Below, piece after piece: positions 2 to 22,943 of a stretch of 27,990 nt of DNA. The stretch spans positions 1-27,990 of the forward strand of contig CACZIP010000001.1 in the NCBI GenBank assembly GCA_902781245.1, written 5' to 3'. The DNA comes from an uncultured Coriobacteriaceae bacterium (lineage in GTDB: Bacteria > Actinomycetota > Coriobacteriia > Coriobacteriales > Eggerthellaceae). The notes under the pieces are model-generated. The model did no database searches. It was not told where the DNA came from and worked only from the letters and a program-made list of their open reading frames with translations. The translations under genes were made by a program, and so were the position numbers. Position 1 is the first letter of the stretch, and each line of letters opens with the position of its first letter.

Positions 2-85
2 CCCCACTACGAGAACATCCGCGTATTACGTGACACTAAACACGATTACCGCGAATACCAACTCGAGCTGGAGAAGGCGAAATGA
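2..85 (+). CDS. 3' end of an upstream CDS of unknown product (partial, runs off left edge)
   Basis: Open frame from position 2 (PHYENIRVLRDTKHDYREYQLELEKAK*). Its TGA (83-85) overlaps the ATG (82-84) of the next gene in an ATGA coupling like others in this locus. Confidence 0.5.
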   Translation, partial: PHYENIRVLRDTKHDYREYQLELEKAK

Positions 86-3000
86 CAACGATTCCAAGTA
101 CGACAGTGGCCCTTACGGTCACCGACGCTTTCCATCCCTCTGAAAGCGAACTCGACTTCGTCGTACGCACCTTCAACGTTCGATTCTCCGATTGGCGCGG
201 CAAACGAATCGTGCTCCATGGAACGAGGGAATATGCGCGCGCCATCGTAGAGTCTTTCGACGAAGCATATCGATTTGCCGCCGTAGTTGCCGATGGCTTT
301 GCGAATGCAACATTCGCGGGCAAGGATGTTTGGACCGACAGGCAGCTTGTCGAAGAAAAGCCTGATCTGGTAATTCTCACAGAACGAGTGCGTCACGCCG
401 AAGCCGTCTACCAGGAAATTGGCACGAAATGCCGAGAGGCAGGCATCGCACTCTTTGACATGTATGGACTGGATTGGCTGGCAATGCGCGACGAGATCGA
501 TGGGCAAGGTGCGCACACGTTGGAGGAATGGGTCGATATCGCCGCCCCTTATGACATCGTGAGTTTCGAAGTACCCGATTGCCTGATGATGCCGAACCCG
601 CAAGATGCGGACGTGCCGCTGATCTGCCAACCTTCGATGCGCAAACTCATCAAACGAATCGTGGCACAGGGCAAGCAGGCGCTATTTGTTGGACGCAAGC
701 CCTACACTGCCGAAGAGCAAATCGAGTCGCTCATAGCGTCAGGACTCATCTCCCGCAGAGAAGACGCCCAGGATCTCTTCTTTATGCGCGCGAACGAAGA
801 CGGTGCGTGGCGCACTATCCGTGCTGCTTATCCCGATGCGCGCATCTTACACGTGGGGTATGGCATCCCCAAGGAATGTGTGCTGCCTCGGTATTACGGC
901 GTCAACACGTATCGCATGGTGGGTGAGATAGCACCGGACAGCAAACAGCTCCAATACGGCAACCTTGCACGCGAGTCGCTCGACCCGGCGAAGCTGAAAG
1001 AACGCTTGGAAGCAGCCATCGAACAGGCAGAGGTCGTTTCGTTCGATATCTTCGATACATTGCTCGTACGCACGACGCTTGTGCCCTACGATGTGTTCGA
1101 GATCGTCGAACAACGCGCGGTGGAAATCGGGTTGCCAGCGCAGGGGTTCGCCGCAGCTCGCTTGGCAGCCCAACATAGCGCTGATGGCTATACAGCTGCG
1201 CGTATCTACCAAGCAGTGCAGCATGCCCTTGGCTGCAGCGATGCCGAATGTGAAGAGCTCTATCGTATAGAGCTTGAGGTAGAGCGCGAATCCATTTTTC
1301 CACGCGATTCAATGTGTTCATTGCTGCACAAGGCGCTCGCAAGGGGAAAGACAGTTGTCCTAATCTCTGACATGTACCATTCTGCTGAAACGATGGTCGA
1401 GCTCCTGCAAGCCAACGGCATCACAGGGTATCAGAAGCTCCTCGTTTCGAGCGAGCAGGGCATCCTCAAACGTCAGGGGCTGTTCGATTGCGTGATTTCG
1501 CCAGACACCCCCGCAAACCACATCGTTCATATCGGTGATAGCGTCAACAATGATATCGTTCCAGCCAAGGCAGCCGGCATGCAAGCCATCTTCGTCCCTT
1601 CCCCGCTCGATCTCGCGTTGACACATGGCATCAATCGAATGATGCGCAAGGATATGACCCTGGAGGAGCGCTGCGAGCTGCAAAGCATAATCGTCCGAGA
1701 ATATGCCGACCCTTTCGTTGAGCGAAACCTTGCCGTCGTCGAAGGCGCATGTGAGTCAATTCCCATCCCCTCCGTCGCCTCATTCTGTTCGTGGATGTCA
1801 AACACACCCTCTCTCGAAAAAGCCGTCGTCCATGTCGCACCCTACGAAAGCCGCATCCCTGTCGAGCTCCGTCGTGCGCTTCTCGCCTGGTACCCCTTCC
1901 ACACAGGATCACGTGCCCTGTTCTTGGGATCAGATCGGGAGGCATTCACATCACTGCTTGAAGCACATTACAGTATGCTCGATTTCGAGCTCGCACCCAA
2001 CGTGCAATACGACTTCATCGTCGCGCTCGACGTGCTCGATGGAAATCCTGAGCTGCAAGCGCTCGCCGAACGACTGTCACGCGCATTGGCGCCTGACGGC
2101 GTGCTGCTCTTGGGATTCAGGAACCGTTTCGGCGTGAAATATCTATGCGGCGCCATCGACGACGTTGTTGAAAACCCATTCGCCACGTTCGACTCAACCG
2201 GCTACCCAGGCACCCATGGACGACACGAAATGCAACACCTCGTCGAATGTGCCGAACTTTCGGCAGACCGCTTGTACTACATCATGCCTGATGCGGGTTT
2301 CGCTCAGGCAATCTATACCGACGATTACATTCCCAGTGCGGGAATCCACGACCGCGTGATGCCATTTGACAAGCACAAAAGCCCAATGGTCGCCGTCGAG
2401 CGCGATCTCTATCCCGCCATCGTAGAAGAAGGCATGCTTCCAGCTGTAGCCAACTACTACCTGATGGAATGCCGGAAGCCAGATGCTGCGCGTCCCGCCA
2501 GGCAGGTTGCCCATGTGGCGCTTTCGCTCGATCGCGGGTTGGCACACTCGTTCATCACCACACTGTTCACCGATGGAACCGCTCTCAAAGCCGCCGCACA
2601 TCCAGAAGGCCGTGCGGCGCTCGAAGCGCTTTACGCTAACAGCCAGGCATTGCATGCACGTGGCCTTGTGACTGTCGAAACGCAGCTCGAAGACGACGGT
2701 TTGCACATGCCCTTCATTAAGGAACAGCCGCTTCTCGCACATCTGGATGCGTTGCTGCCCATTGACCCTGATGCATTCATAGCTGTGTTCGACCAACTCT
2801 ACGAGGACGTTCTCGCATCGTCGGAACCCGGCACCATCTCGGATACCGACGCGTGGGGCACCTGGCACGCGAGCGCAACAGAACTCTCCCCCATCCTGCA
2901 AACAGCCTATATCGACATGGTCCCATACAACTCCTTCTGGTCAAACGGCATACTGCGCTTCTTCGACCAGGAATTCACCGTCGCAAATTGCCCAGCGAAA

Positions 3001-3702
3001 TACGTGCTGTTCCGCGCCCTGCGCTATACGTGGATCCATCTGCCGCATGCGGAACAATTGATTCCACTCGAGCGCATGAAGAAGCGCTTTGGCCTCGAAA
3101 AATTATGGGACGACTTCTTGAATTTAGAGGAAAGATTCGTCGAGGAGAACCGCAATCGTGCGCGCTACCGCGACATCTACGAATGGGCACGGTTCGATGC
3201 CCGCAGGATTGCAGAAAGCCGACATGCGTTGGCGCAATCCACGCAAGCCGCCGACGATAAGCCCTATCGCATTGGCCTGCTCATGGGTGTATTCGACCTG
3301 TTCCACGTGGGACATCTACGGCTCATCAAGCGCGCTAAAGCTCGCTGCCAGTTCTTGCGAGTTGCCGTACTCTCCGATGATCTCGTGCGCAAATTTAAAA
3401 ACATCACACCCACCATACCGCTTTCCCAGCGCATGGAAATCATCGCAGCCATAGACGGGGTCGATGAAGTTGTCGCCATCGAGGATGAGCCCTCACGTCT
3501 CGTGGAATGGCATCGCCGGCCCTTCGACTGCTTCTTCTCGGGCGACGATTACGCAGGAAATGAATACTGGGCACAAGAGCGTATCGAATTGGAAAAGCTT
3601 GGCGCAACCATCGAATTCTTCAGCTACACCGAAGAGCAAAGTTCTTCGAAGATTCGAGATGCACTCGAAGGACGCACCACAAACAAGAGGTTATCCGATT
3701 GA
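82..3702 (+). CDS. 1206-aa multidomain glycan biosynthesis protein: Rossmann-like module + degenerate HAD + intact HAD phosphatase + degenerate class I SAM methyltransferase-like + kinase-like + C-terminal HxGH (TagD-like) cytidylyltransferase
   Basis: RBS GGAGAAGG before ATG. Motifs: RIVLHGTREYA; degenerate HAD SFEVPDCL...HVGYGIPKE; intact HAD SFDIFDTLLVR (1039-1071), LISDMY, HIGDSVNND; MTase-like LLAWYPF...LAPDGVLLLGFRNRFGVKYLCG; kinase-like YIDMVPYN and FFDQEF; cytidylyltransferase GVFDLFHVGHL (HVGH at 3304-3315), QRMEIIAAIDGVDEVV, FSGDDY, SSSKIR. Confidence 0.85.
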   Translation: MTTIPSTTVALTVTDAFHPSESELDFVVRTFNVRFSDWRGKRIVLHGTREYARAIVESFDEAYRFAAVVADGFANATFAGKDVWTDRQLVEEKPDLVILTERVRHAEAVYQEIGTKCREAGIALFDMYGLDWLAMRDEIDGQGAHTLEEWVDIAAPYDIVSFEVPDCLMMPNPQDADVPLICQPSMRKLIKRIVAQGKQALFVGRKPYTAEEQIESLIASGLISRREDAQDLFFMRANEDGAWRTIRAAYPDARILHVGYGIPKECVLPRYYGVNTYRMVGEIAPDSKQLQYGNLARESLDPAKLKERLEAAIEQAEVVSFDIFDTLLVRTTLVPYDVFEIVEQRAVEIGLPAQGFAAARLAAQHSADGYTAARIYQAVQHALGCSDAECEELYRIELEVERESIFPRDSMCSLLHKALARGKTVVLISDMYHSAETMVELLQANGITGYQKLLVSSEQGILKRQGLFDCVISPDTPANHIVHIGDSVNNDIVPAKAAGMQAIFVPSPLDLALTHGINRMMRKDMTLEERCELQSIIVREYADPFVERNLAVVEGACESIPIPSVASFCSWMSNTPSLEKAVVHVAPYESRIPVELRRALLAWYPFHTGSRALFLGSDREAFTSLLEAHYSMLDFELAPNVQYDFIVALDVLDGNPELQALAERLSRALAPDGVLLLGFRNRFGVKYLCGAIDDVVENPFATFDSTGYPGTHGRHEMQHLVECAELSADRLYYIMPDAGFAQAIYTDDYIPSAGIHDRVMPFDKHKSPMVAVERDLYPAIVEEGMLPAVANYYLMECRKPDAARPARQVAHVALSLDRGLAHSFITTLFTDGTALKAAAHPEGRAALEALYANSQALHARGLVTVETQLEDDGLHMPFIKEQPLLAHLDALLPIDPDAFIAVFDQLYEDVLASSEPGTISDTDAWGTWHASATELSPILQTAYIDMVPYNSFWSNGILRFFDQEFTVANCPAKYVLFRALRYTWIHLPHAEQLIPLERMKKRFGLEKLWDDFLNLEERFVEENRNRARYRDIYEWARFDARRIAESRHALAQSTQAADDKPYRIGLLMGVFDLFHVGHLRLIKRAKARCQFLRVAVLSDDLVRKFKNITPTIPLSQRMEIIAAIDGVDEVVAIEDEPSRLVEWHRRPFDCFFSGDDYAGNEYWAQERIELEKLGATIEFFSYTEEQSSSKIRDALEGRTTNKRLSD

Positions 3703-3727: not shown

Positions 3728-4687
3728 ATGACACGTGGATTCGTAACAATTGCAACTGGCAGGAAGCGTTACTACATCATCGCTGCTAACTTGCTTGCGT
3801 CGTATCGACATTTCTCTGCCAGCCCTCTGCCTTTCGCAATCATCTGCGACGCTGAGAATGACTACACCAAGCTTTTCGACGATATAGTACTACTCGACAA
3901 CCCTCACCGTTCTTATTTGGATAAGCTCGTCCTGCCGCGCCTCGCACCATACGATGAAACCATTTTCATTGATGCAGATTGCCTCGCTTATCGCGACCTA
4001 AACGATTACTGGAACTACTTCGAACAGGCGGCGGATTTTACCGCATTCGGCACAACCCATCCCGCCGATTTCCCCTATGCGTGGTTCAAAAAGAATGACG
4101 TGGACGAATATGCCGACCGCATCGAGTTCGTGCCAGACTTTATTGGGGGCGTCTACTTCATCAGAAAAGATGCGACACTTAATGCATTCTCCGATACGTG
4201 TACCCACATCCTCGAAAACTACCATCGCTATACGTTCCGTCAGTTCTCACAACCAGCTGACGAACCTATCTTCGCCCTCGCCATGGCAGTTCATGGTTTT
4301 AAGCCGGTCGATAAAGCACAAGCTCCTATCTGCTTCTTCCCACACGAAACGAGCTTTACATCCGATATCACGACGGGTCAAGTACGTTATACAAGCAAGT
4401 ACGAAAGTGACTGCGGTGAACGCCGATGGGCCTATATGGTCCATTGGGGCAGCGGCAACACGTCGAAACCGCCTTACATCACCGAAGCAGCCCGCTTGAA
4501 ATCTGCTATTCGCGAGCGCGGGAAACTCGCAACAACATGCGGAGCCATGTGTGCATGCGCGCCTTATTATGCAAAAACAGGTATGAAGTGGGTTTTGTCG
4601 AAGCTCCATTTGCTCGATGTCGCACGTAGGGTGAAAAGCTCGCTTGCATCACCCCATCGCGACAACTCATCATCAGTTTCTCGATAG
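3728..4687 (+). CDS. GT-A fold glycosyltransferase (GT8-like nucleotide-diphospho-sugar transferase), 319 aa
   Basis: ATG 3728 preceded by GGAAAGCGGAG, preferred to the track's 3464 start that overlaps the upstream gene. DxD motif in PYDETIFIDADCLAYRDL; GGVYFI and DEPIFALAM motifs; basic amphipathic C-terminus. Exact family assignment is inference. Confidence 0.65.
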   Translation: MTRGFVTIATGRKRYYIIAANLLASYRHFSASPLPFAIICDAENDYTKLFDDIVLLDNPHRSYLDKLVLPRLAPYDETIFIDADCLAYRDLNDYWNYFEQAADFTAFGTTHPADFPYAWFKKNDVDEYADRIEFVPDFIGGVYFIRKDATLNAFSDTCTHILENYHRYTFRQFSQPADEPIFALAMAVHGFKPVDKAQAPICFFPHETSFTSDITTGQVRYTSKYESDCGERRWAYMVHWGSGNTSKPPYITEAARLKSAIRERGKLATTCGAMCACAPYYAKTGMKWVLSKLHLLDVARRVKSSLASPHRDNSSSVSR

Positions 4688-4988: not shown

Positions 4989-6740
4989 ATGAAATCGATT
5001 TCGCTGAGCAGGTGGATATGCATCGGCTTTTCCGCATTGCTGATAGCCATCAGCTTTCTTGTCGGATGCCAATCATCCACTGCATCCTCCGCCACTTCGG
5101 CATCAGCCGCCAGCTCGGCATCGTCCGCCGATGTGGAAACCGCAGTTACCTTCAGCGTGGAGTCCGGCGCATACCAAGCACAGTCCATCGATCTCACGCT
5201 TAGCAGCTCCTCGGGCTTGCCTATCGTCTACACGACGGACGGGTCATTGCCTACCGCTTCTTCCGTGCGCTTTGATGGCGCAATTTCGATCGATTCGAGC
5301 GATACCAACAGGGCCCTCATAACCCGGCTCAACAACGAGATACCCGATTTCAGAGCGATTGTCGTGGACGATTCGCTTCCAACAGCAACTGTAATCAGGG
5401 CAGCCGTCTTGCGTCCTGACGGAACAGTTGGCCCAACTTTCACGAACACATATTTCGTAGACGAGGACCTCGTGCAGATGTTTGACAGCATCATGGTCGT
5501 TTCACTTGTAGTCGACCCAGCCAATCTTCTCGATTACGAGAGTGGCATCATGGCGAAAGGAGCCATCTACGACGAGCATCGCGCAGAAAACGAGCTCCTG
5601 AGCAACGGAAACCAACATGATGTTCAGGCAAACTACACTCAAAAAGGCCGCGATTGGGAGCGAGAAGCCACCATCGAACTCTTCGACGGTTCCAACACGC
5701 TTTCGTACGAAGCGCCTTGCGGAATACGCTTGCGCGGACGTGTGTCGCGCATATATGCGCAGAAGAGCTTCAACGTGTATTTCAAGGATTCGTATGGGAC
5801 CAAAAAGATGGAATACCCGCTGTTCGGCGATATCGCAACGTCATCAAACGGGGATCCAGTAACCACTTACAAGAGCTTCTGCTTGCGATCGGGCGGCAAC
5901 GACACGGAACTGTTGCGCTACCGAGATAGCCTTCTGCAGGAAACGCTCGGTGGCTACGATTACGCCACGCAAGCCTCGCGTCCAGCAATCGTCTTCTTGA
6001 ACGGGGAGTTCTATGGCGTCTACAGCCTTGCAGAGAAATATTCAGATTCCTACATCGAAAGCCATTATGGAGTCGATTCTAAAAATGTGGTCATGTTCGA
6101 AGACGGGGAACTCGACGAGGGCGTCGACGAAGACCAAGCTCTCTACAACGAACTCATAGAATTTGCAGAGCGCGACCTGGCAGACGAAACCACATGGAAT
6201 GAATTCAACAATGTGGTCGACGTTCAATCTATGGCCGACTATTATGCAACTCAATTATTCATCGGCAATTACGATTTCGATGAAACGCAGAACTGCCGCA
6301 TATGGAGGGCACGCGATCCTGAAGAGGATAGCGCGTATGCCGACGGGCGATGGCGCTGGATGCTATACGACACCGAGTTTTCCACTGGGCTGTACGGCCT
6401 CCAGGTAACACAAGCCGACTACGACACAATGAAACAATATCTGGAGATATGCCCGCTCTTTGCCGCAGCGATGCGCAACCCAACCTTCCGCGAGCTTGTC
6501 CGCAGCCGCATCATCGATCTTTCGCAAAACGCATTCGAACCTACCCGAATTACCACCTTGTTCGACGAGTGGTGGGTGGTTTGGAAGCCGTGGATTAACT
6601 TGAGCTGCAAGCGATTCGCGACAAAAATCGACAGTGCTGAGCAGAGCTTGACCTTTGCGAAAGACTTCTTCGCCCGACGCGCGGATTGCATCATCGATTT
6701 CTTTGACCTGCATGTGGCGGAGATAGCTGCACAAAGTTAA
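4989..6740 (+). CDS. CotH kinase family lipoprotein with Fn3-associated/CHB_HEX_C-like domain, 583 aa
   Basis: Signal peptide with lipobox LVGC (Cys27). Ser/Thr/Ala-only linker at aa 29-47. FSVESGAY...IVYTTDGSLPT (Fn3-associated). CotH motifs GIRLRGRVSR, KSFNVYF, LRSGGND, LNGEFYGVYSLAEK, YYATQLFIGNYD, WRWMLYDTEFS. RBS GAGGGGA. Confidence 0.85.
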   Translation: MKSISLSRWICIGFSALLIAISFLVGCQSSTASSATSASAASSASSADVETAVTFSVESGAYQAQSIDLTLSSSSGLPIVYTTDGSLPTASSVRFDGAISIDSSDTNRALITRLNNEIPDFRAIVVDDSLPTATVIRAAVLRPDGTVGPTFTNTYFVDEDLVQMFDSIMVVSLVVDPANLLDYESGIMAKGAIYDEHRAENELLSNGNQHDVQANYTQKGRDWEREATIELFDGSNTLSYEAPCGIRLRGRVSRIYAQKSFNVYFKDSYGTKKMEYPLFGDIATSSNGDPVTTYKSFCLRSGGNDTELLRYRDSLLQETLGGYDYATQASRPAIVFLNGEFYGVYSLAEKYSDSYIESHYGVDSKNVVMFEDGELDEGVDEDQALYNELIEFAERDLADETTWNEFNNVVDVQSMADYYATQLFIGNYDFDETQNCRIWRARDPEEDSAYADGRWRWMLYDTEFSTGLYGLQVTQADYDTMKQYLEICPLFAAAMRNPTFRELVRSRIIDLSQNAFEPTRITTLFDEWWVVWKPWINLSCKRFATKIDSAEQSLTFAKDFFARRADCIIDFFDLHVAEIAAQS

Positions 6741-6890: not shown

Positions 6891-7979
6891 TTGGCGCTCG
6901 ACGACGTGAGCCTTTCAGTCTACGAAGGAGAAGCGCTGGGAATCATCGGCCGCAACGGCGCAGGCAAGAGCACACTGCTCAAACTACTGTCGCGCGTGAC
7001 GGTGCCAACGACGGGCCAGATTCTCGTCAGGGGCATGATTTCTTCCATGCTCGAAGTGGGCACCGGCTTTCATCGGGAAATGACCGGTCGCGAGAACGTG
7101 TATCTCAACGGCGCGATACTGGGGATGTCCAAGCGAGAAATCGACGAGAAGATGGAAGACATCATCGAATTCGAGGAAATGAGCCGTTTCATCGACACGC
7201 CCGTGAAGCGATACTCGAGCGGCATGTATGTCAAGCTCGCCTTCTCTGTTGCCGCCCACTTGGACAATGACATCATGGTCATGGACGAAGTGCTTTCGGT
7301 GGGAGATGTCATGTTCCGCGCAAAGAGTCTCGCCAAGATGCAGCAGGAAGCGAGCGGCGGCAAGACCATCCTCTACGTGAGCCACAACATGTCCACCATC
7401 AGAAAGCTTTGCGACAGATGCGCGGTGCTCCGGGAAGGCAAGCTCGTGTACTTGGGCGCTACCGAAAAGGCGATCGAAAAGTACCTGGACACGATCCTGG
7501 ACAATCGAACGTCGAGGGACCTATCCCAAATGCCGAGGAGCGCGCGTCTAACATCGCGCAAGATGATCCTCACGCATGCTGAATATCCTGGGAAGGACTG
7601 CATCCAATTCGAAGATGGAGAAAAGCTGACGATGCGCCTTCACTGGGAGGACCTGGACGATTACGAAGACCTTTGCTTACGCGCAGAAGTCTGGACCATC
7701 GAGGATGTCCTGCAAGCGAGCGGCGTAATCCACAACGTGTGCTCGGGCAAGCGCGGTGATTCACACGACGTGACGATAGAGTTGGACATCTCGCGGTTCG
7801 CGAGTGCTACCTACAAAACGAAGTTCACGTTCTTCTTCCGCGATAGGTTCGGGGGCATTCACGATACGGACAGAGTAATCGGATTGTTCTTCGAGAGGGT
7901 TTCGCAAGACGAAGCCCTCTGGGATGTCTCGAATTGGGGTTATATCCATCTCGATGATCTACGAGTGCTGCAATCCTAA
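6891..7979 (+). CDS. wzt: Polysaccharide ABC transporter ATP-binding protein (Wzt) with C-terminal carbohydrate-binding-like domain; probably 5'-truncated
   Basis: Walker A GRNGAGKST, signature YSSGM, Walker B IMVMDE, VSHNM. Wzt homology extends 44 codons upstream to 6759 (RHRLGQIGGGTLQHDIQSWW) with no ATG/GTG/TTG between the CotH stop (6740) and TTG 6891, so it may be a silent or pseudo copy. Confidence 0.7.
   Translation: MALDDVSLSVYEGEALGIIGRNGAGKSTLLKLLSRVTVPTTGQILVRGMISSMLEVGTGFHREMTGRENVYLNGAILGMSKREIDEKMEDIIEFEEMSRFIDTPVKRYSSGMYVKLAFSVAAHLDNDIMVMDEVLSVGDVMFRAKSLAKMQQEASGGKTILYVSHNMSTIRKLCDRCAVLREGKLVYLGATEKAIEKYLDTILDNRTSRDLSQMPRSARLTSRKMILTHAEYPGKDCIQFEDGEKLTMRLHWEDLDDYEDLCLRAEVWTIEDVLQASGVIHNVCSGKRGDSHDVTIELDISRFASATYKTKFTFFFRDRFGGIHDTDRVIGLFFERVSQDEALWDVSNWGYIHLDDLRVLQS
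7137..7168 (+). repeat. 32-bp perfect inverted repeat, arm 1 (inside + wzt)
   Basis: GAAATCGACGAGAAGATGGAAGACATCATCGA; exact reverse complement at 8859-8890. It arises from paralogy of the two wzt genes. Confidence 0.85.
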
Positions 7980-8017: not shown

Positions 8018-9331
8018 TTACTCGGAGATTTCAATATCTACATCGTGCAAGCGAATGGCACCCCAGTAGTTGTGGTGCCAATCAAGATAATTCTTTTCGT
8101 CGAGCTCTACCACCACATCGAACACCACTCCCGGGTACACGCCGTCGAGAATATCTTCATTGCCTTCTTCATCGTGGAAAAACGCTACAAGATCGGCGCT
8201 ATACTGCCCTGTCGTCAAATGCGACAAATCCATGCGCATATGGATTTTGTTGACCCCTTCGTGTAGATCGACGAACCCTCTCGAGAGCATTGTGCCGATC
8301 TTTGTGCCATCTTGCGACCAGAGCTCGAAGCGGAAGCCCACCTGCGCAAGCGGACGCAAAGCCGTGCACGACAACTCCAACTCCACCGTTTCATCAGCGG
8401 CGAACGTAGGAGCGTCTTTACCGAGGATATCAAGCGTGTCGATGTTAAGCCGTCGGTTGAGCCGCAAGTATTCGTCATAGGGACGATAGCCATCATCATA
8501 TTCATAGTGCGTTTGCAACAACGTGTTGCCACCACCCAGATAAAGAGCAACGGCCGCATCAACATCGCCATCAAAGACGATCTTCCCCGCATCCATGACA
8601 ATGCAGCGGTCACACAAACGTTTGATGGTGCTCATATTGTGACTCACATACAAAACGGTCCTATGTTCCTGTTTTGCAGCTTGCCGCATTCGGTCGAGAC
8701 ACTTGTGCTGGAATTCCATATCGCCAACTGCCAGCACCTCGTCCATAATCATGATTTCGCTGTCCAGGTGCGCAGCAACTGAGAAGCCTAGCTTCACGTA
8801 CATGCCGCTTGAGTAGCGCTTTACGGGCGTGTCGATGAAGTCGCGAACTTCCGAGAACTCGATGATGTCTTCCATCTTCTCGTCGATTTCACGGCGCGAC
8901 ATACCCAAGATAGCACCGTTGAGATAGATGTTTTCACGACCTGTCATTTCGCCATTGAAGCCCGTGCCAACTTCAAGCATAGATGCGACTCGGCCATACA
9001 GGTCGATTTCGCCTTCCGTGGGGGCTGTGATGCGACTTAGGATCTTGAGCAGTGTCGACTTTCCAGCACCGTTCTTCCCGATGATGCCGAGCGCCTCGCC
9101 CTTGTACACCGTGAGATCGAGGCCATCGAGCGCATAGAAGTCATCATCCCTCTTCGGTGCAGCACCATCGACTTCGCCAGACCGTTCTATCTGCCTCCGC
9201 TCGCGCCATTCTTTTATGTCGCCTTGGAGCGTACCGCTGCCAATCTGACCAAGACGATAACGCTTACGCAAGCCCGAAATCGCAATGATCGGTTCACGTT
9301 CGGTGTTCTGTCTGCTTGTCTGATGCGCCAT
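8018..9331 (-). CDS. wzt: Polysaccharide ABC transporter ATP-binding protein Wzt with C-terminal Wzt_C-like domain, 437 aa
   Basis: ATG at 9331, 2 nt after the wzm stop. IAISGLRKRYRLGQIG, Walker A GKNGAGKST, YSSGM, IMIMDEVLAVGD, VSHNM; beta-rich C-terminal extension. Confidence 0.92.
   Translation of the reverse strand: MAHQTSRQNTEREPIIAISGLRKRYRLGQIGSGTLQGDIKEWRERRQIERSGEVDGAAPKRDDDFYALDGLDLTVYKGEALGIIGKNGAGKSTLLKILSRITAPTEGEIDLYGRVASMLEVGTGFNGEMTGRENIYLNGAILGMSRREIDEKMEDIIEFSEVRDFIDTPVKRYSSGMYVKLGFSVAAHLDSEIMIMDEVLAVGDMEFQHKCLDRMRQAAKQEHRTVLYVSHNMSTIKRLCDRCIVMDAGKIVFDGDVDAAVALYLGGGNTLLQTHYEYDDGYRPYDEYLRLNRRLNIDTLDILGKDAPTFAADETVELELSCTALRPLAQVGFRFELWSQDGTKIGTMLSRGFVDLHEGVNKIHMRMDLSHLTTGQYSADLVAFFHDEEGNEDILDGVYPGVVFDVVVELDEKNYLDWHHNYWGAIRLHDVDIEISE
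8859..8890 (-). repeat. 32-bp perfect inverted repeat, arm 2 (inside - wzt)
   Basis: TCGATGATGTCTTCCATCTTCTCGTCGATTTC is the reverse complement of 7137-7168. Confidence 0.85.
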
Positions 9332-9333
9332 AT

Positions 9334-10173
9334 CTACACCGTATCCACGAACGTTCGCTCCACGCGATTGAACATAAGGATGCCGCATACCGCACACACC
9401 AGCGCAACCACGATGCTAATTCCCGTTGTAATGGGATCGATGGTCCCCGAGCCCAGCAGGGCGAATCGAAGCCATTCTACTGGCGCCGTTACCGGATTCA
9501 GCATCACGACGGTTCGCAGTATCCCTTCGGGAATCTGCGAAAGCGGGTACACGATGGGAGTGCCGAACATCCAAAGCTGCATTCCGAACGACACGAGAAT
9601 TTGCAGGTCGCGATATTTTGTCGTCAAGCTGGACAAGATGATGCCCACACCCATACCTAGAACACAAAGATGCACAAGAGCGAGTGGAATGATCAGCCAC
9701 ATCAACCAGTTCGGGCTTACCGTGCCTTGCACGACGAAGAACGCCACCAATGCAAGCACGAGAATCATCTGTATGCCGAACCGGATGAGCCCTACGAGTA
9801 GATTTGAAACAGGTACAGTGAGCCGCGGGAAATATACCTTGCCGAACACGTTTGCATTCGCAATGAACGTTGCCGCATTGTCGGTGACCGCTGATGCAAA
9901 CAAGCCCCATATAGCCGTGCTCGCTAGATAGAACAGGATTTGGGGTACTCCATTGGTACTGATGCCGGCTATGACGCCAAACACAAGCATATAGGCGATG
10001 CTCGACAGAAGCGGACTGATGATTATCCACGCAGGCCCCAGCACCGTCTGCTTGTACGTGAGCGTGAACGTCTTTTTCGTGAGCAGCACGATGAGGTCGC
10101 GATATTGCCAAACTTCACCAAGGTTGAGCCCTACGCACTCCGTTTCGGAAGATATGTGGACATGATAGGTCAT
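9334..10173 (-). CDS. wzm: Polysaccharide ABC transporter permease Wzm, 279 aa
   Basis: WQYRDLIVLL...TYKQTVLGPAWIIISPL, ANVFGKVYFPRLTVP, LTTKYRDL, WMFGTPIVYP, LNPVTAPVE; about six hydrophobic segments. ATG 10173 overlaps the upstream TGA (ATGA). Confidence 0.93.
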   Translation of the reverse strand: MTYHVHISSETECVGLNLGEVWQYRDLIVLLTKKTFTLTYKQTVLGPAWIIISPLLSSIAYMLVFGVIAGISTNGVPQILFYLASTAIWGLFASAVTDNAATFIANANVFGKVYFPRLTVPVSNLLVGLIRFGIQMILVLALVAFFVVQGTVSPNWLMWLIIPLALVHLCVLGMGVGIILSSLTTKYRDLQILVSFGMQLWMFGTPIVYPLSQIPEGILRTVVMLNPVTAPVEWLRFALLGSGTIDPITTGISIVVALVCAVCGILMFNRVERTFVDTV

Positions 10174-12848
10174 AGCAAATAGATTAACCCCCTCTTGGAG
10201 CTTGTTTCGTGAGGCTCTCGCCAAGAGTCACCATAGTATAAATCGAGCCACTTCTCTGCATTTCCCGGAACGGGGATGGTGGTACCTTCAAATGATACGC
10301 GGACCGCGTGGGCAATATCGGCTTCAGCGAACCGCACGTGATTGGGCCTGCGGCGATAGTTCCCGGTGAAGCAGGTGAGCAAGCCCGTGGGCTTCACCGC
10401 TGTGCAGGATGCGCGCAACCCGCGGCAAAGCGCAGAACGACTCACCAGGTCGGCGAGCAGGAAGTATGCACTTACTTTGTGGGGATCGGCATCCCAGATT
10501 TGCTCGAGATTGTCATAGGTCTTCGCATAGAGCAGCCTTTGCCATGTGCGCACGATGCGTTGCCGCTTCTCGACCTCCGCATCGTCGAGAGGACAATTGT
10601 CGAGGGGAAGAATATCTATCCACACCCCCTCCTCTTCTGAATGCTTATCGTTCTCCGACCTCTCTACAATCGCAGATAGATTGCGTAATTTAGCATAACC
10701 GCCGGTGAAGCTCGCAGCATCATTTTCGGGGGTCTGAAGAACAAACGGTTCGGGAAATACACCACATGCAGCCAGTTCAGTCAAACGATCGTAATCTGCG
10801 CGGGGCATAGCCACATCGATATCATCGTCTCCTGAAACGAAGCCGCCCTCGCGCACGGCTCCAAGCAACGTGCCGTGCGTCGCAACGTACTTCAGATCGA
10901 ATTCTTCGCACACGGCATCGAAAACATCGAGCAACTCGAGCATCGCATACGTAATGTCGCGCTTCGCAATCTGATTGCCGTCCATGCAAACGTCGCCTTC
11001 AACTGCATCATCACTTGCAGCTGCGTCGCCAACTGGATTGTTGAGCGGTATCAGTTCGTCAATCCGCTTCGTAAGCACACGCCCGCTCAAGTCATCGACG
11101 AGTGTCATGCTGTCTGTGTCGCACAGGTCGAGATACGGCATTATGGCATTCAGGAAGGCTGGAGATATCACGTCGCCTTTTTCGTACCAATGCCTGAAAT
11201 ACTCGCGCGCGAAAAGCTTGACACCTTTATGCACATCTTGAAGAATCCGCAGCTCTCCAGAAGTGCGGTATTCAGTGCTGAAAACTGGCGTTCCGTCATC
11301 GTCGAAGCCTTTCAACGATGGTTCGGTTGAGCTCAGGTAAGGTTCGAGGACGAGATAGCGCGAGAAAAAGCTCACATGTTCGCTGTCGAAATAGAGCGAA
11401 CATGTGAGCTTGCGAGAGATGTTGTTCCCTATGCGCGATCCAAAATAGAACCCTTTGAGACAGAAGGGAGCGAACCGCTCGAGTTGACGCTGGCACGTTC
11501 CCGCACCAACGAACTCGACAAACGCATATGTTTTTCCCAAGCCGAGACCGCACGAAGCGAAATAACTCAGGGAATTGTCACGCTCGACCGTCGAGACAAT
11601 TGCAGCACGACTAGCATTGCGCGACGTATAGAAATACCTCGACAAAGGATATGGCCCCCCCGCGCATTGGCTCCGGAAGATATCGTACACGCCTTTCACA
11701 AGAAACCCGTCTCGCGAGACGAACAACGCTTCCTCGAATACTTCCGGAGATTTCGCAAAACAATCCGCCAACCACGTCACAAACCCGACAACCAGAGGCG
11801 CAACTATTGCAACAACCTTGGCAGACCGTTTGTCAATAGCGTCGGAAATATCGGGCAAAACCGCACGCGCGCACGACAAGAGGCGATCATCAGGCGCTCG
11901 CCCCTCTTCAACTACCTCGTCTTCATACCAAATTCCCCTCGGAACAATCTCTTCTCTCAAGCCTTCGAGTCGAATGCCGTTTGGCACTTCCAACAAACTC
12001 GTCAATACAGATCGCTTGCCATAACAGAGGGGAATGTAACAGTCGCGAAGGATATCCATGCCGATGTGAACCGTTGCACCTGAAGGCAGATGCCTGTACA
12101 TGAGTCGATAGAGGCCGTTTTCGGCAAATGAATCCGTTTCTGCCGCCAAGAACAACGGTCCCGTATTCGCCAGGCCAGCTTGTTCGAGTAGAGATAGAGC
12201 GGTCTTCTTGTCCACTGCGGGATCGACGCAATAGTATGCAACCTTCTTGCCTTTTGCGAGTTCGTAGGCAAGAATCGAACTGAGGCACTCGGAAATATCC
12301 ACCTGATTTCGAATGCACTTTGCAATTTCCATTGTCGCCGCCGCGCCGATAAGCAACCCTATGCTAACGCAAAGGGAGTTGCTCGACTCGATTTCTTCCA
12401 GCTTGCTTTCCAACGATTGCGCGATTGCTCGCTGAGTCAACGCCTCTATGGCCTCGCAATCGTTGCCATACATGTCTAGTAAGCGCACTCCAGCATCGAA
12501 GCATCTTTCACGAATGCGGCTGATGACAGCAAGAGCAGAAGTAAACTTAGCAGCGACGATAAGCGCATCAATTCCCTGAGAAAGAACGGCTTCGAGACTC
12601 GATACCACGAACTCGTCCACCGTCTCGCCAATTGCATTGTCGTCGGCAATCGCCACAACATCGAAGCACCGACCTTCGGCGTCGAGAATGTAATGCGCAT
12701 TTGCGCCTGACCCATACAATGCAACTCGTCTACCTTGAAGGTTCTTGCTCGCAGACAAAAGCGCTGCGAGACGATAGTCCGTTTCGCACTCAAAGTCTGC
12801 TGGTTTGCGAATTGAAACCCCAGCGTCTTTACATAGAAGCCTGTTCAC
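10170..12848 (-). CDS. 892-aa multidomain protein: Rossmann-like module + degenerate HAD + putative phosphoribosyltransferase-like (SRDG) domain + C-terminal LicD-family phosphotransferase
   Basis: RVALYGSGANA; degenerate HAD VHIGMDILRD; FVSRDG, YFYTSR, AFVEFVGAGTCQ, GFYFG; LicD motifs LLDVFDAVCEEFDLKY, HGTLLGAVREGGF, GDDDIDVAMPRADYDRL, WIDILPLD, LDLYYGDSW. GTG start is uncertain. Confidence 0.8.
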   Translation of the reverse strand: MNRLLCKDAGVSIRKPADFECETDYRLAALLSASKNLQGRRVALYGSGANAHYILDAEGRCFDVVAIADDNAIGETVDEFVVSSLEAVLSQGIDALIVAAKFTSALAVISRIRERCFDAGVRLLDMYGNDCEAIEALTQRAIAQSLESKLEEIESSNSLCVSIGLLIGAAATMEIAKCIRNQVDISECLSSILAYELAKGKKVAYYCVDPAVDKKTALSLLEQAGLANTGPLFLAAETDSFAENGLYRLMYRHLPSGATVHIGMDILRDCYIPLCYGKRSVLTSLLEVPNGIRLEGLREEIVPRGIWYEDEVVEEGRAPDDRLLSCARAVLPDISDAIDKRSAKVVAIVAPLVVGFVTWLADCFAKSPEVFEEALFVSRDGFLVKGVYDIFRSQCAGGPYPLSRYFYTSRNASRAAIVSTVERDNSLSYFASCGLGLGKTYAFVEFVGAGTCQRQLERFAPFCLKGFYFGSRIGNNISRKLTCSLYFDSEHVSFFSRYLVLEPYLSSTEPSLKGFDDDGTPVFSTEYRTSGELRILQDVHKGVKLFAREYFRHWYEKGDVISPAFLNAIMPYLDLCDTDSMTLVDDLSGRVLTKRIDELIPLNNPVGDAAASDDAVEGDVCMDGNQIAKRDITYAMLELLDVFDAVCEEFDLKYVATHGTLLGAVREGGFVSGDDDIDVAMPRADYDRLTELAACGVFPEPFVLQTPENDAASFTGGYAKLRNLSAIVERSENDKHSEEEGVWIDILPLDNCPLDDAEVEKRQRIVRTWQRLLYAKTYDNLEQIWDADPHKVSAYFLLADLVSRSALCRGLRASCTAVKPTGLLTCFTGNYRRRPNHVRFAEADIAHAVRVSFEGTTIPVPGNAEKWLDLYYGDSWREPHETSSKRGLIYLL

Positions 12849-12852
12849 CGCA

Positions 12853-13797
12853 TCAACGCCTTAAAAACTCTGCGGTTTTCATGATGCCCTCATCGACTGA
12901 AACGTGCGGCTGCCAGCCGAGCATCTCCTTCGCTAACGAGATATCCGGTTTACGCCGTGCAGGATCGTCAGAAGGCAGGTCGCAGAACACCACCTTTGAG
13001 GATGAGCCCGTGAGGGCAATCACCTTTTCGGCGAGCTCGAGCATGGTGAGCTCCTCGGGATTCCCCAGGTTAACCGGACCTGTGAACCCTTCGCATTCCA
13101 TCATGGACACGAGCGCATCGAGCATATCCTCCACGAAGCAGAAGCTTCGTGTCTGGGTGCCGTCGCCATATATCGTGACGTTTTCCCCCGCAAGGGCTTG
13201 AGAAATGAAATTCGTCATCACGCGTCCATCGTCAACACGCATGCCGGGGCCATATGTGTTGAACACTCGGACAACGCGGATTTCCACGCCATACATACGG
13301 TGGTAGTCGAAGAACAAGGTTTCCGCAGCACGTTTCCCCTCGTCATAGCATGCACGCACGCCGATAGGATTCACATTTCCTCGATAGTTTTCCCGCTGCG
13401 GATGCTCCAGCGGATCTCCGTAGATTTCGCTGGTCGACGTCAGAAGCACTCGTGCATTGGTGCGGCGAGCAAGCTCGAGCACGTTGATGGCACCGAAAAC
13501 GCTCGTCTTCATCGTGGCGATAGGGTCGGCTTGATAAAAAGGGGGGCTGGCTGGACATGCGAGGTTGTAGATATGACCAACTTTTTCAATCGAGTTGAAG
13601 GCGCTTGCATCAGCCACGTCGGCTTTCAGGAACGAGAAGTTCGGATATGCAACAAGATCGGCTATGTTTTCTTCTCGGCCCGAAATCATATTATCGAGAC
13701 ATACAACCCGTTTGCCTTCTCCCACAAGGCGTCTACATAGGTTGGAACCGATAAAACCAGCGCCACCTGTCACAAGCGCCGTTTTGTCAAACCCCAC
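12853..13797 (-). CDS. uxs: UDP-glucuronic acid decarboxylase (UDP-xylose synthase), extended SDR family, 314 aa
   Basis: [92 protein letters not shown] 13797 follows AGGAGG. Confidence 0.92.
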
Positions 13798-13849
13798 GAT
13801 TACTTTCCTCCTGTTTTTAAGCCAAGCCCAACGGCGCATGCCCAGACCA

Positions 13850-21587: not shown

Positions 21588-22943
21588 TTATAGAGCGTTC
21601 ACAGCGTCAACGATGATCTGGAGACGTCCGCGGTCAACCCGCCCATTTGCAATGCTGTCGAAGAGAAGCTGAATGAGCTCGAGGCTCAACATGACAAGAA
21701 CAGCTTTCGCGTATTGCCGTTCCGCGAATTCATGCCCCCTATATTGAACAAGATGTGAGTACAGGTTGTCATAAAGGCTGTTCCTCGCTTTTCGATAGGA
21801 AACCCGACCAACCCTAACGTTTCTTACCTGCAAGCTGAATAGGAAATAGCACACGTCGCACAATGGATCGCCCATCGCAACAGTATCCAAGTCTACAAGG
21901 TAATACGTCCCTTGGTAATACACGAAATTCGTATACGAGCAGTCTCCATGGCATGGCCTGAGCGTGGTTGACAATAAGGCGAGCCTCGACGCCACTCTCT
22001 CTTCGCATGCATCGATTGCCAGCTTTGCCTCATATTCAAACTTCAAGCAGCGCTCAAAAACCTGCGAGAAATAGCGGTATCGCTCCTCCAAGTAATCAAA
22101 GACGACGGGTGCAACGAGGCTCATTTCGTGAAAACGCCGAATACAATTCAGTGCGTTTGCTACCACTTCCCGGTCATTGAAGCGAATGTTGAAAAATGGT
22201 GTTGCATAGCGGTCAATTCGGGCTCCATCATCACGCGCGCAAACGAGAAGCTCCGTCCCAACGCGATGCTGTATTAACCAGGCTGTACGATTTGCTGTAT
22301 TCCACTGCTCCGGTGCGGCAAAGACACGAGTAGCGTGCTCCTTGTCATACGGCATGCGAAACATATACTTTATCGTGTCGACAACATAGCCGAAAGAAAC
22401 GCTGTTTTCCCCGCCCCTCATCGTAAAGAAGCTGTCCGCAGCCTTTTCGCCATGCGCCTCTTTGTACAAAGCACGAAACGATTCGTATACCATCGTAGAA
22501 TCGCAGGCCCAGCCACCGAGCCTTAGAGATCGTTTAATTAGGGGATCATGCGTGACCATTTCCTCCCAATTGTTGTAGTAATACGTTATGTGTCTACGAT
22601 TTACGCAAACTGGAAGATTGGATATATCGAAGAGCAATCGAAGCTCAGCAAGGATTTCCTCTGAAAAACGCTGACTCGAAACGACAAGATAGTACTCGTT
22701 GAAATCAAGGGAAGCCAAATAATCGAAAGGTTGAATACGATAGCTGCGTCCGCAAAGCTCAATGATTTTACCCACTTTATTCGGACTGTTGTCAATAACA
22801 TGGGCGACATTGGGCAATTCCATCTCATTCATGAGATTGAGACAGCCTCTACCAGCGCCACATATGATGGCATGTCGCTGGGTAACGTCTTGCTCGTCGT
22901 CTTCGCACGAAATGCAAATCTGCATACATGGCTCCAGAATCAT
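21588..22943 (-). CDS. Choline/ethanolamine kinase-like (APH superfamily) phosphotransferase with N-terminal Rossmann-like module, 451 aa
   Basis: AIICGAGRGC...IDNSPNKVG; kinase features MRGGENS, KYMFRMP, IRRFH, PCHGDCSYTN, LVDLD, MGDPLCDV. ATGA coupling to the upstream gene. Confidence 0.75.
   Translation of the reverse strand: MILEPCMQICISCEDDEQDVTQRHAIICGAGRGCLNLMNEMELPNVAHVIDNSPNKVGKIIELCGRSYRIQPFDYLASLDFNEYYLVVSSQRFSEEILAELRLLFDISNLPVCVNRRHITYYYNNWEEMVTHDPLIKRSLRLGGWACDSTMVYESFRALYKEAHGEKAADSFFTMRGGENSVSFGYVVDTIKYMFRMPYDKEHATRVFAAPEQWNTANRTAWLIQHRVGTELLVCARDDGARIDRYATPFFNIRFNDREVVANALNCIRRFHEMSLVAPVVFDYLEERYRYFSQVFERCLKFEYEAKLAIDACEERVASRLALLSTTLRPCHGDCSYTNFVYYQGTYYLVDLDTVAMGDPLCDVCYFLFSLQVRNVRVGRVSYRKARNSLYDNLYSHLVQYRGHEFAERQYAKAVLVMLSLELIQLLFDSIANGRVDRGRLQIIVDAVNAL

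Follow-up and report, generated by a model that had tools for sequence, protein, structure and literature searches.

Genes and modules at the locus

The window analyzed here is a 27,990-nucleotide (nt) stretch of the genome of an uncultured Coriobacteriaceae bacterium (Eggerthellaceae), and our subject is an open reading frame (ORF) at one end of it, P0001, which encodes 1206 amino acids (aa) arranged as six successive modules, together with an 892-aa protein encoded on the opposite strand that appears to be its partner. The modules of P0001 and the domains of the partner are listed below in window coordinates.

82..3702, + strand: P0001, 1206 aa, six modules; ATG at 82, TGA ending at 3702, frame uninterrupted
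139..531, + strand: module 1, Rossmann-like alpha/beta, aa 20-150; pLDDT about 90 in the AlphaFold2 (AF2) model; the partner has a homologous N-terminus
544..921, + strand: module 2, degenerate HAD core, aa 155-280; from an hhalign match to the intact HAD and from alignment
994..1641, + strand: module 3, putative intact HAD phosphatase of the CrpP type, aa 305-520; D322 nucleophile, S429, K463, D486/D491
1840..2487, + strand: module 4, degenerate methyltransferase of the class-I fold, aa 587-802; GxGxG and about 29 residues are missing
2494..3231, + strand: module 5, kinase-like, aa 805-1050; K836, D945-x4-N950 and D962-Q-E, model topology and conservation
3265..3666, + strand: module 6, putative HxGH nucleotidyltransferase, aa 1062-1195; HVGH at 1075-1078, GDDY, YTEEQSSSKIR
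10170..12848, - strand: partner, 892 aa; chassis aa 20-277, putative CriT-like phosphoribosyl pyrophosphate (PRPP) ribofuranosyltransferase about aa 335-596 (nt 11073-11852), LicD aa 647-873; from profiles and about 28 full-length homologues

An initial annotation of this DNA, made from the sequence alone, had drawn the ORF and all of its modules within a few codons of these positions, and its six domain calls were all borne out by profile, motif and model evidence.

Conservation of the six-module fusion

P0001 is a real, conserved six-module fusion. The ATG is preceded at 9 nt by a GGAG Shine-Dalgarno sequence, and a search of 5.8 billion proteins recovered collinear full-length relatives consisting of a cluster at 99% identity, which contains 12 sequences, and 13 more proteins of 1174-1242 aa with 51-67% identity. 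The same architecture is present on two Eggerthellaceae metagenome-assembled genome (MAG) contigs, L001 (60% identity) and L002. Since full-length relatives and MAGs from this family both carry the architecture, the fusion is genuine and is not an assembly chimera. An artefact of assembly or gene calling that joins separate genes, which the initial annotation had proposed to check for, gains some appeal from the fact that the modules are spread over two or three genes in most other genomes. However, the frame is unbroken and the order of modules is collinear in 14 independent metagenomic proteins (51-67% identity), in the 12-sequence cluster and in the Eggerthellaceae MAGs; the full-length relatives already refute this explanation, and we give it next to no weight.

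Searches of P0001 with Pfam and NCBIfam models recognized the C-terminal cytidylyltransferase-like domain (1067-1193), the HAD domain (318-506) and, below threshold, a methyltransferase (635-677). The two halves of the protein were folded separately with AF2, each with its own family alignment, with a mean pLDDT of 87.9 (N half) and 82.1 (C half). The full architecture had no match among PDB structures and none was found in the literature searched, in agreement with the initial annotation, which had recognized no characterized protein of this kind. The set of modules is itself common in gut anaerobes, in other fusion orders, and no characterized member was found there either.

A probably non-catalytic N-terminal region shared by both proteins

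Residues 20-280 of P0001 have the features expected of a non-catalytic chassis, and a homologous chassis appears to begin the 892-aa partner: the N-terminal 260 residues of the two proteins are homologous with an E value of 2e-11. Within this region the second module aligns with the intact HAD domain of P0001 itself in a profile-profile comparison (hhalign, 95% probability, E value 3.5e-8), but in the family alignment a glutamate, E163, occupies the position of the nucleophilic aspartate and GYGIPKE stands in place of GDSxxxD. The initial annotation had spoken of an assembly line; for the first two modules, the homology to the N-terminus of the partner and the profile match of the dead HAD point to a shared chassis and not to catalytic steps. 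No family match was obtained for the Rossmann-like module (aa 20-150) with Pfam and NCBIfam models or in fold searches with the two half-protein models; matches to HADs, methyltransferases and nucleotidyltransferases dominated the latter, which barely probed this module or the kinase-like one. PF22674 (C2185-like_N) is listed in precomputed annotations of relatives and was not reproduced at an E value of 0.01. Complex prediction with the two chassis (aa 14-300 of P0001 and aa 10-300 of the partner) gave scores of 0.61, 0.00 and 0.00 in three runs, a result that speaks neither for nor against binding. A CriT-like transferase was also considered for residues 1-305 and was rejected, the region being Rossmann-like plus dead HAD, with the gPRT domain located in the partner.

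Predicted phosphatase, ribofuranosyltransferase and nucleotidyltransferase domains

The sequence of P0001 residues 305-520 supports an intact HAD phosphatase of the CrpP, or phosphoribosyl-phosphatase, type. By Pfam and alignment the domain keeps FDIFDT, SDM, K463 and GDSxxND. Motif I reads VSFDIFDT, its D322 is invariant in 18 sequences and it aligns with the FDIFDT of Bcs3 (CrpP D386), while the residues of motifs II-IV (S429-D430, K463 and G485-D-S...D491) are invariant or nearly invariant. In a subfamily test the domain was closer to CrpP and to 7SHG than to other HADs. CrpP is the ribose-5-phosphate phosphatase of Bcs3, the capsule polymerase of Haemophilus influenzae type b (Hib) (PMC10299916). 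The dephosphorylation step foreseen in the initial annotation is therefore supported by a CrpP-type HAD and, by analogy with Bcs3 CrpP, can be sharpened to a putative removal of the 5-phosphate from newly transferred ribofuranose-5-phosphate.

A transferase that could supply this substrate was found in the partner. Three metagenomic proteins (P0021, P0023 and P0024) consist of the N half of P0001 followed by about 290 residues that match the middle of the 892-aa protein, and in other genomes a gPRT-like region lies directly behind the chassis and HAD. A five-sequence profile of the middle region matched Bcs3 CriT (residues 647-834, E value 3e-6) and 7SHG (residues 301-491, E value 8.6e-4); a single-sequence PDB search with the whole partner gave no match, only the five-sequence profile reaching these two structures. 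The Asp of an SRDG motif and the acidic residue of a VEF motif align, by residue count on the alignment, with D680 and E818 of Bcs3, both of which inactivate CriT when mutated (PMC10299916). These alignments support assignment of a PRPP-dependent, CriT/gPRT-like ribofuranosyltransferase domain and a LicD phosphotransferase domain to the partner. A TagF-like CroT domain had no match in either the 1206-aa or the 892-aa protein; LicD domains are present instead. This genome is 71% complete, and in it gPRT was seen nowhere but in the partner and a CrpP-type HAD nowhere but in P0001. The idea of a scaffold coupling donor activation, dephosphorylation and capping stands in part, but P0001 looks like half of a two-protein unit whose PRPP transferase is in the 892-aa protein.

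Donor activation is supported as well. Residues 1062-1195 exceeded the curated cut-offs of PF01467 (53.9 bits against 21, E value 2.7e-14) and TIGR00125 (50.5 bits against 27.7), which supports an HxGH nucleotidyltransferase of the group that includes TagD, ECT, CCT and HldE domain II.

Comparative census of related loci

Fifty related loci, many of them on truncated contigs, were scanned with hidden Markov models (HMMs) of the individual modules. The kinase-like domain (KIN), nucleotidyltransferase (CT), LicD, gPRT and HAD were found all together in 25 of the 50 loci, although the census was seeded on nucleotidyltransferase motifs and co-occurrence with that domain is biased accordingly. The modules are arranged otherwise than in P0001 in about 30 other genomes. 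A three-gene layout is common and occurs in MAGs labeled Lachnospiraceae, Erysipelotrichaceae/Solobacterium, Oscillospiraceae and Planctomycetaceae. Its first gene encodes chassis, dead HAD, HAD and gPRT in a protein of 800-930 aa, the second encodes the methyltransferase-like and kinase-like pair (MT-KIN) fused to LicD (15 ORFs) or to CT (5 ORFs), and the third is a stand-alone nucleotidyltransferase or LicD. Compared with this layout, the lineage of the window has exchanged halves, with chassis-HAD and MT-KIN-CT in one protein and chassis-gPRT and LicD in the other; the machine proposed below would have arisen by this domain swapping.

The pairing of the two large proteins is also seen at greater distance. 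Three homologues of P0001 with 51-55% identity have a partner-type gene of 871-885 aa within about 4 kb, and in the same three loci there is an SDR gene, GT2 genes, Wzm and a Wzt of 431-443 aa. Upstream of the homologue, two of these loci have a coupled small LicD and the third has a partly read gene that overlaps the start.

Several single proteins from the census show further combinations. Two megafusions were found, one of 1489 aa (L013:9563-14029) that runs from chassis-HAD-gPRT to KIN-CT and one of 2177 aa (L042:7313-13843) that contains HAD-gPRT-MT-KIN. Proteins P0206 and P0207 (1054-1070 aa) are of the partner type with an additional C-terminal cytidylyltransferase domain. A 1195-aa protein (L048:4890-8474) has HAD-gPRT in its C-terminal half only, its N-terminal region of about 600 residues matching no module HMM; it adjoins a LicD, an MT-KIN, another LicD and a fusion of a nucleotidyltransferase with GT1.

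Neighboring genes

The genes around P0001 and the partner that bear on their possible role are as follows.

2..85, + strand: 3' part of a gene that runs in from beyond the window, with a TGA that overlaps the P0001 start codon (ATGA); from translation and synteny
3728..4687, + strand: 319-aa gene with its own GGAG; no Pfam match; by eye a GT-A/GT8-type N-terminus (FVTIATG..., IDADC)
6891-7979, + strand: second Wzt-type ATPase gene, convergent with 8018-9397, without a Wzt_C-like match
8018-9397, - strand: Wzt with a C-terminal Wzt_C-like extension (Wzt_C match with E value 7.7e-6, below cut-off)
9334-10224, - strand: Wzm of the export system
12853..13839, - strand: SDR epimerase/dehydratase-family gene adjoining the partner, with the same adjacency in homologous loci

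In three loci (L001, L050 and L051) the gene upstream of the P0001 homologue is a LicD of 289-297 aa, and the truncated gene in the window is probably a second LicD translationally coupled to P0001. In L050, where the P0001 homologue has 51% identity to P0001, the next gene downstream shares 66% identity with the 319-aa gene, which by this comparison counts as a third, conserved operon member. An extended Wzt, of 431-443 aa, is found in the homologous loci as well.

SDR genes lie directly beside a nucleotidyltransferase or LicD protein in many loci (for example L032:3775-4827, L017:3715-4647 and the contig of P0040). By analogy, this recurrence hints that the activated alcohol or sugar may be reduced or epimerized at the nucleotide level; HldD acting after HldE and the CDP-xylulose reductase are parallels for such a step. 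An APH/choline-kinase-like protein of 451-457 aa with an N-terminal extension of about 200 residues is encoded both in the window (21588-22943, - strand) and in L050 (7597-8970, - strand), and this conserved protein could be an alternative source of alcohol phosphate for the nucleotidyltransferase. The window also encodes a CotH-family kinase with chitobiase-C and Fn3-associated domains (4989-6740, + strand); a CotH protein was likewise found at L032:7080-8864, an Acidaminococcaceae locus with chassis-HAD-gPRT and nucleotidyltransferase but without MT-KIN.

The methyltransferase-like and kinase-like modules

Module 4 has a Rossmann-like methyltransferase fold in the AF2 model by fold comparison, and its PF13489 score is 20 bits against a cut-off of 27. 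At the position of methyltransferase motif I it reads LGSDRE and it has about 29 residues fewer than its homologue P0020, which has IGAGFG; methylation has probably been lost in the lineage of P0001. A count of GxGxG by regular expression over family representatives was discarded, being so strict that it flagged proteins with good Pfam methyltransferase matches.

Module 5 is probably an active kinase-like domain, as judged from its residues and its model. The strands and helices of the AF2 model follow the order of a protein kinase. All of 51 family members with 27-48% identity to P0001 have K836, N950 and D962-Q-E, as well as an acidic residue, Asp or Glu, at position 945, and the order and spacing of these residues are right for a kinase (K836, D/E945-x4-N950, and D962 12 residues after N950). 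A deep profile of the domain matched a bacterial Ser/Thr kinase in the PDB weakly but in the correct register (E value 0.11), and its nearest neighbors in a protein language model (0.85-0.89) were APH, RIO1, WaaY and WaaP. When the MT-KIN didomain was compared with AlphaFold DB clusters using Foldseek, the matches were named APH-domain or phosphotransferase (E values of 3e-13 to 3e-12) and also included proteins fused to glycosyltransferases. The family is large, with 1061 representatives at 50%-identity clustering (E value of 0.001 or better), and the kinase-like domain nearly always begins about 270-300 residues into the protein, behind a methyltransferase.

Proposed function

We propose that P0001 forms, with its partner, a Bcs3-like machine of two subunits for a surface glycopolymer exported by Wzm/Wzt that contains ribofuranose and phosphodiester links, and on the domains and models described above we hold this to be somewhat better than an even chance. 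In such a machine, the gPRT domain of the partner would place ribofuranose-5-phosphate from PRPP on the growing glycan and the HAD domain of P0001 would strip the 5-phosphate in trans. The nucleotidyltransferase of P0001 would make a CDP-activated alcohol phosphate, and the LicD domains, that of the partner and that of the small upstream-coupled protein, would use this donor to add the phospho-alcohol. The finished chain would be exported by the neighboring Wzm/Wzt ABC transporter. The whole would be functionally equivalent to Bcs3 (CriT-CrpP-CroT), with LicD taking the place of the TagF-like CroT and donor synthesis built in.

The least certain part of this explanation is the MT-KIN pair. It may well, though we put this at rather below an even chance, be a module of the type of WbdD or Klebsiella pneumoniae O7 ORF6, which phosphorylates the non-reducing end of the glycan as a cap that is read by the extended Wzt. 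Methyltransferase-kinase terminators with a Wzt whose carbohydrate-binding module (CBM) reads the cap are known for O9a and for O7, an O antigen that contains ribofuranose (PMC11231755). We favor a terminator because the order of methyltransferase and then kinase is that of the O7 and O9a terminators, because the O7 terminator serves a ribofuranose-containing O antigen with a cap-reading Wzt CBM, because the Wzt of the window is extended, because related didomains are fused to glycosyltransferases, because separate APH/choline-kinase-like genes exist in the window and in L050, and because some loci with gPRT and nucleotidyltransferase lack KIN. Chain capping, as the initial annotation had it, is made plausible by the domain order and the extended Wzt; it is unproven and has a serious competitor in a small-alcohol kinase.

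That competitor would have the kinase-like domain act on a small molecule, as LicA or Gtp3 does, phosphorylating a free alcohol; the nucleotidyltransferase would turn the product into a CDP-alcohol for transfer by LicD. There would thus be three consecutive steps, one each for KIN, nucleotidyltransferase and LicD, the roles of the chassis, the CrpP-type phosphatase and the partner gPRT would be unchanged, and the intact methyltransferase of relatives would modify the head group, for example from phosphoethanolamine to phosphocholine. LicA, LicC and LicD are a precedent for a kinase, a cytidylyltransferase and a phosphotransferase working together. KIN is fused to LicD in 15 ORFs or to nucleotidyltransferase in 5 or more, and of 36 cases, 35 have nucleotidyltransferase in the same locus as KIN and 33 have LicD there, figures that are biased by the seeding of the loci; two look-ups made without that seeding also put a stand-alone MT-KIN beside nucleotidyltransferase or LicD genes. 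Pneumococcal gtp1-3/wchX show the same combination of kinase, cytidylyltransferase and phosphotransferase (PMC1391919). However, the window and L050 already encode a separate APH/choline-kinase-like protein, no profile similarity to choline kinase or APH was detected, and both the loci without KIN and the likeness of the didomain to glycosyltransferase-fused proteins speak for a terminator. We give a small-alcohol kinase something under one chance in three. It is still less likely that both modules are dead here and serve as a spacer or docking scaffold between phosphatase and nucleotidyltransferase. The methyltransferase has lost GxGxG and its 29 or so residues, the kinase-like domain matches no Pfam kinase model and the N-terminal chassis shows that the family retains dead domains, but the conservation of K836, N950, D962-Q-E and an acidic residue at 945 across 51 members is the pattern of an active phosphotransferase site and not of decay, and a dead scaffold is thus an improbable explanation.

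A number of results weigh against the terminator, or against the proposed machine as a whole. The kinase assignment is indirect, consisting of motifs, model topology, the match at an E value of 0.11 and language-model neighbors below 0.9; position 945 is Glu in 13 of the 51 members, no Pfam kinase family was matched in a scan of 20 sequences at E values up to 10, and hhalign gave no match between the kinase family and the two APH/choline-kinase-like proteins of the locus, for which the profile held two sequences only. WbdD was absent from the sequence and fold match lists, which single-domain methyltransferase and nucleotidyltransferase matches had filled. The model lacks a coiled-coil ruler behind the kinase-like domain: no helix in the stretch leading to the nucleotidyltransferase exceeds 19 residues. 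In one MT-KIN locus the ABC ATPase has 242 aa and no CBM. Both of these observations favor a small-alcohol kinase, and the tight fusion or adjacency of KIN to nucleotidyltransferase or LicD, seen in most loci, fits such a kinase equally well. The nucleotidyltransferase scored 40.5 bits with the TagD model TIGR01518 (equivalog cut-off 165.4) and 69.9 bits with the HldE domain II model TIGR02199 (cut-off 181.5). Since the HldE-II score is the higher and both are far below their equivalog cut-offs, the scores single out neither CTP nor ATP, and no acceptor. The seeding of the census on nucleotidyltransferase motifs belongs with these points, as does genome completeness, since with 71% of the genome in hand further copies of gPRT or HAD could exist.

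Comparison with known systems

All the parts of P0001 and its partner fall into known superfamilies, and as a whole they follow the logic of Bcs3 and of polymerase-terminator systems; for the architecture itself no characterized precedent was found. The closest comparison is with Bcs3 (CroT-CrpP-CriT-SH3b; PDB 8A0C and 8A0M; PMC10299916), which shares the CriT-like PRPP transferase, located here in the partner. In contrast to Bcs3, two polypeptides with a duplicated chassis in common divide the activities between them, LicD domains replace the TagF-like CroT, SH3b is absent, a nucleotidyltransferase for donor synthesis and the MT-kinase pair are added, and the host is a Gram-positive gut actinobacterium. 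In the bifunctional ribofuranosyltransferases of Thermobacillus composti (7SHG) and of K. pneumoniae O4 and O7 (PMC11231755), HAD and gPRT are on one chain, whereas here they are in separate proteins, and the characterized enzymes lack the chassis of about 280 residues that precedes the HAD and the gPRT here.

Like WbdD of Escherichia coli O9a and ORF6-N of K. pneumoniae O7, P0001 has a methyltransferase fold followed by a kinase-like domain in a locus with a Wzm/Wzt system whose Wzt has a C-terminal extension; ribofuranose, which the O7 glycan contains, is predicted in the glycan here too. Neither sequence nor fold searches recovered a match to WbdD, and P0001 differs in having no coiled-coil ruler, in the loss of the S-adenosylmethionine (SAM) motif and in the position of the pair between phosphatase and nucleotidyltransferase. 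Compared with TagD, ECT, CCT and HldE domain II, the nucleotidyltransferase scores far below every equivalog cut-off, has Tyr for the Arg of the RTEGISTT motif and forms the end of a 1206-aa fusion. The succession of kinase, cytidylyltransferase and LicD-type phosphotransferase decorating a surface glycan resembles LicA/LicC/LicD and pneumococcal Gtp1-3/WchX, but the kinase here is from a different family and lies behind a methyltransferase fold, and the nucleotidyltransferase is of the HxGH and not the LicC type. No characterized MT-KIN-LicD member was found in the literature searched, which covered WbdD with LicD, LicD with ribofuranosyltransferase, and LicD in gut families.

Significance

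To our knowledge, it was not until 2022-2023, and solely in Gram-negative pathogens, that the addition of ribofuranose by a PRPP-dependent transferase and a HAD phosphatase was elucidated. In the window and in about 30 related loci, the domain content suggests that this ribofuranose chemistry is wired to LicD phosphotransferases, an HxGH nucleotidyltransferase and an unnamed methyltransferase-kinase family. It is tempting to speculate, although we consider it rather unlikely, that the two large proteins represent a new class of teichoic-acid-like polymerase of Gram-positive gut anaerobes: a heteromeric analogue of Bcs3 in which a LicD-fold enzyme would make the backbone phosphodiester of a poly(ribofuranosyl-phospho-alcohol) product, with CDP-donor synthesis and a kinase-type terminator built in and a duplicated dead-HAD chassis holding the halves together. 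The natural domain swap marks modules that must cooperate, HAD with gPRT and KIN with nucleotidyltransferase and LicD, and supplies ready boundaries for the expression of single activities. The methyltransferase-kinase family (at least 1061 representatives at 50% identity) was found in Lachnospiraceae, Erysipelotrichaceae, Oscillospiraceae and Eggerthellaceae. So wide a family suggests that a surface polymer yet to be studied is common among gut and rumen commensals, and polymers of this kind influence how the host immune system and phages recognize the cell.

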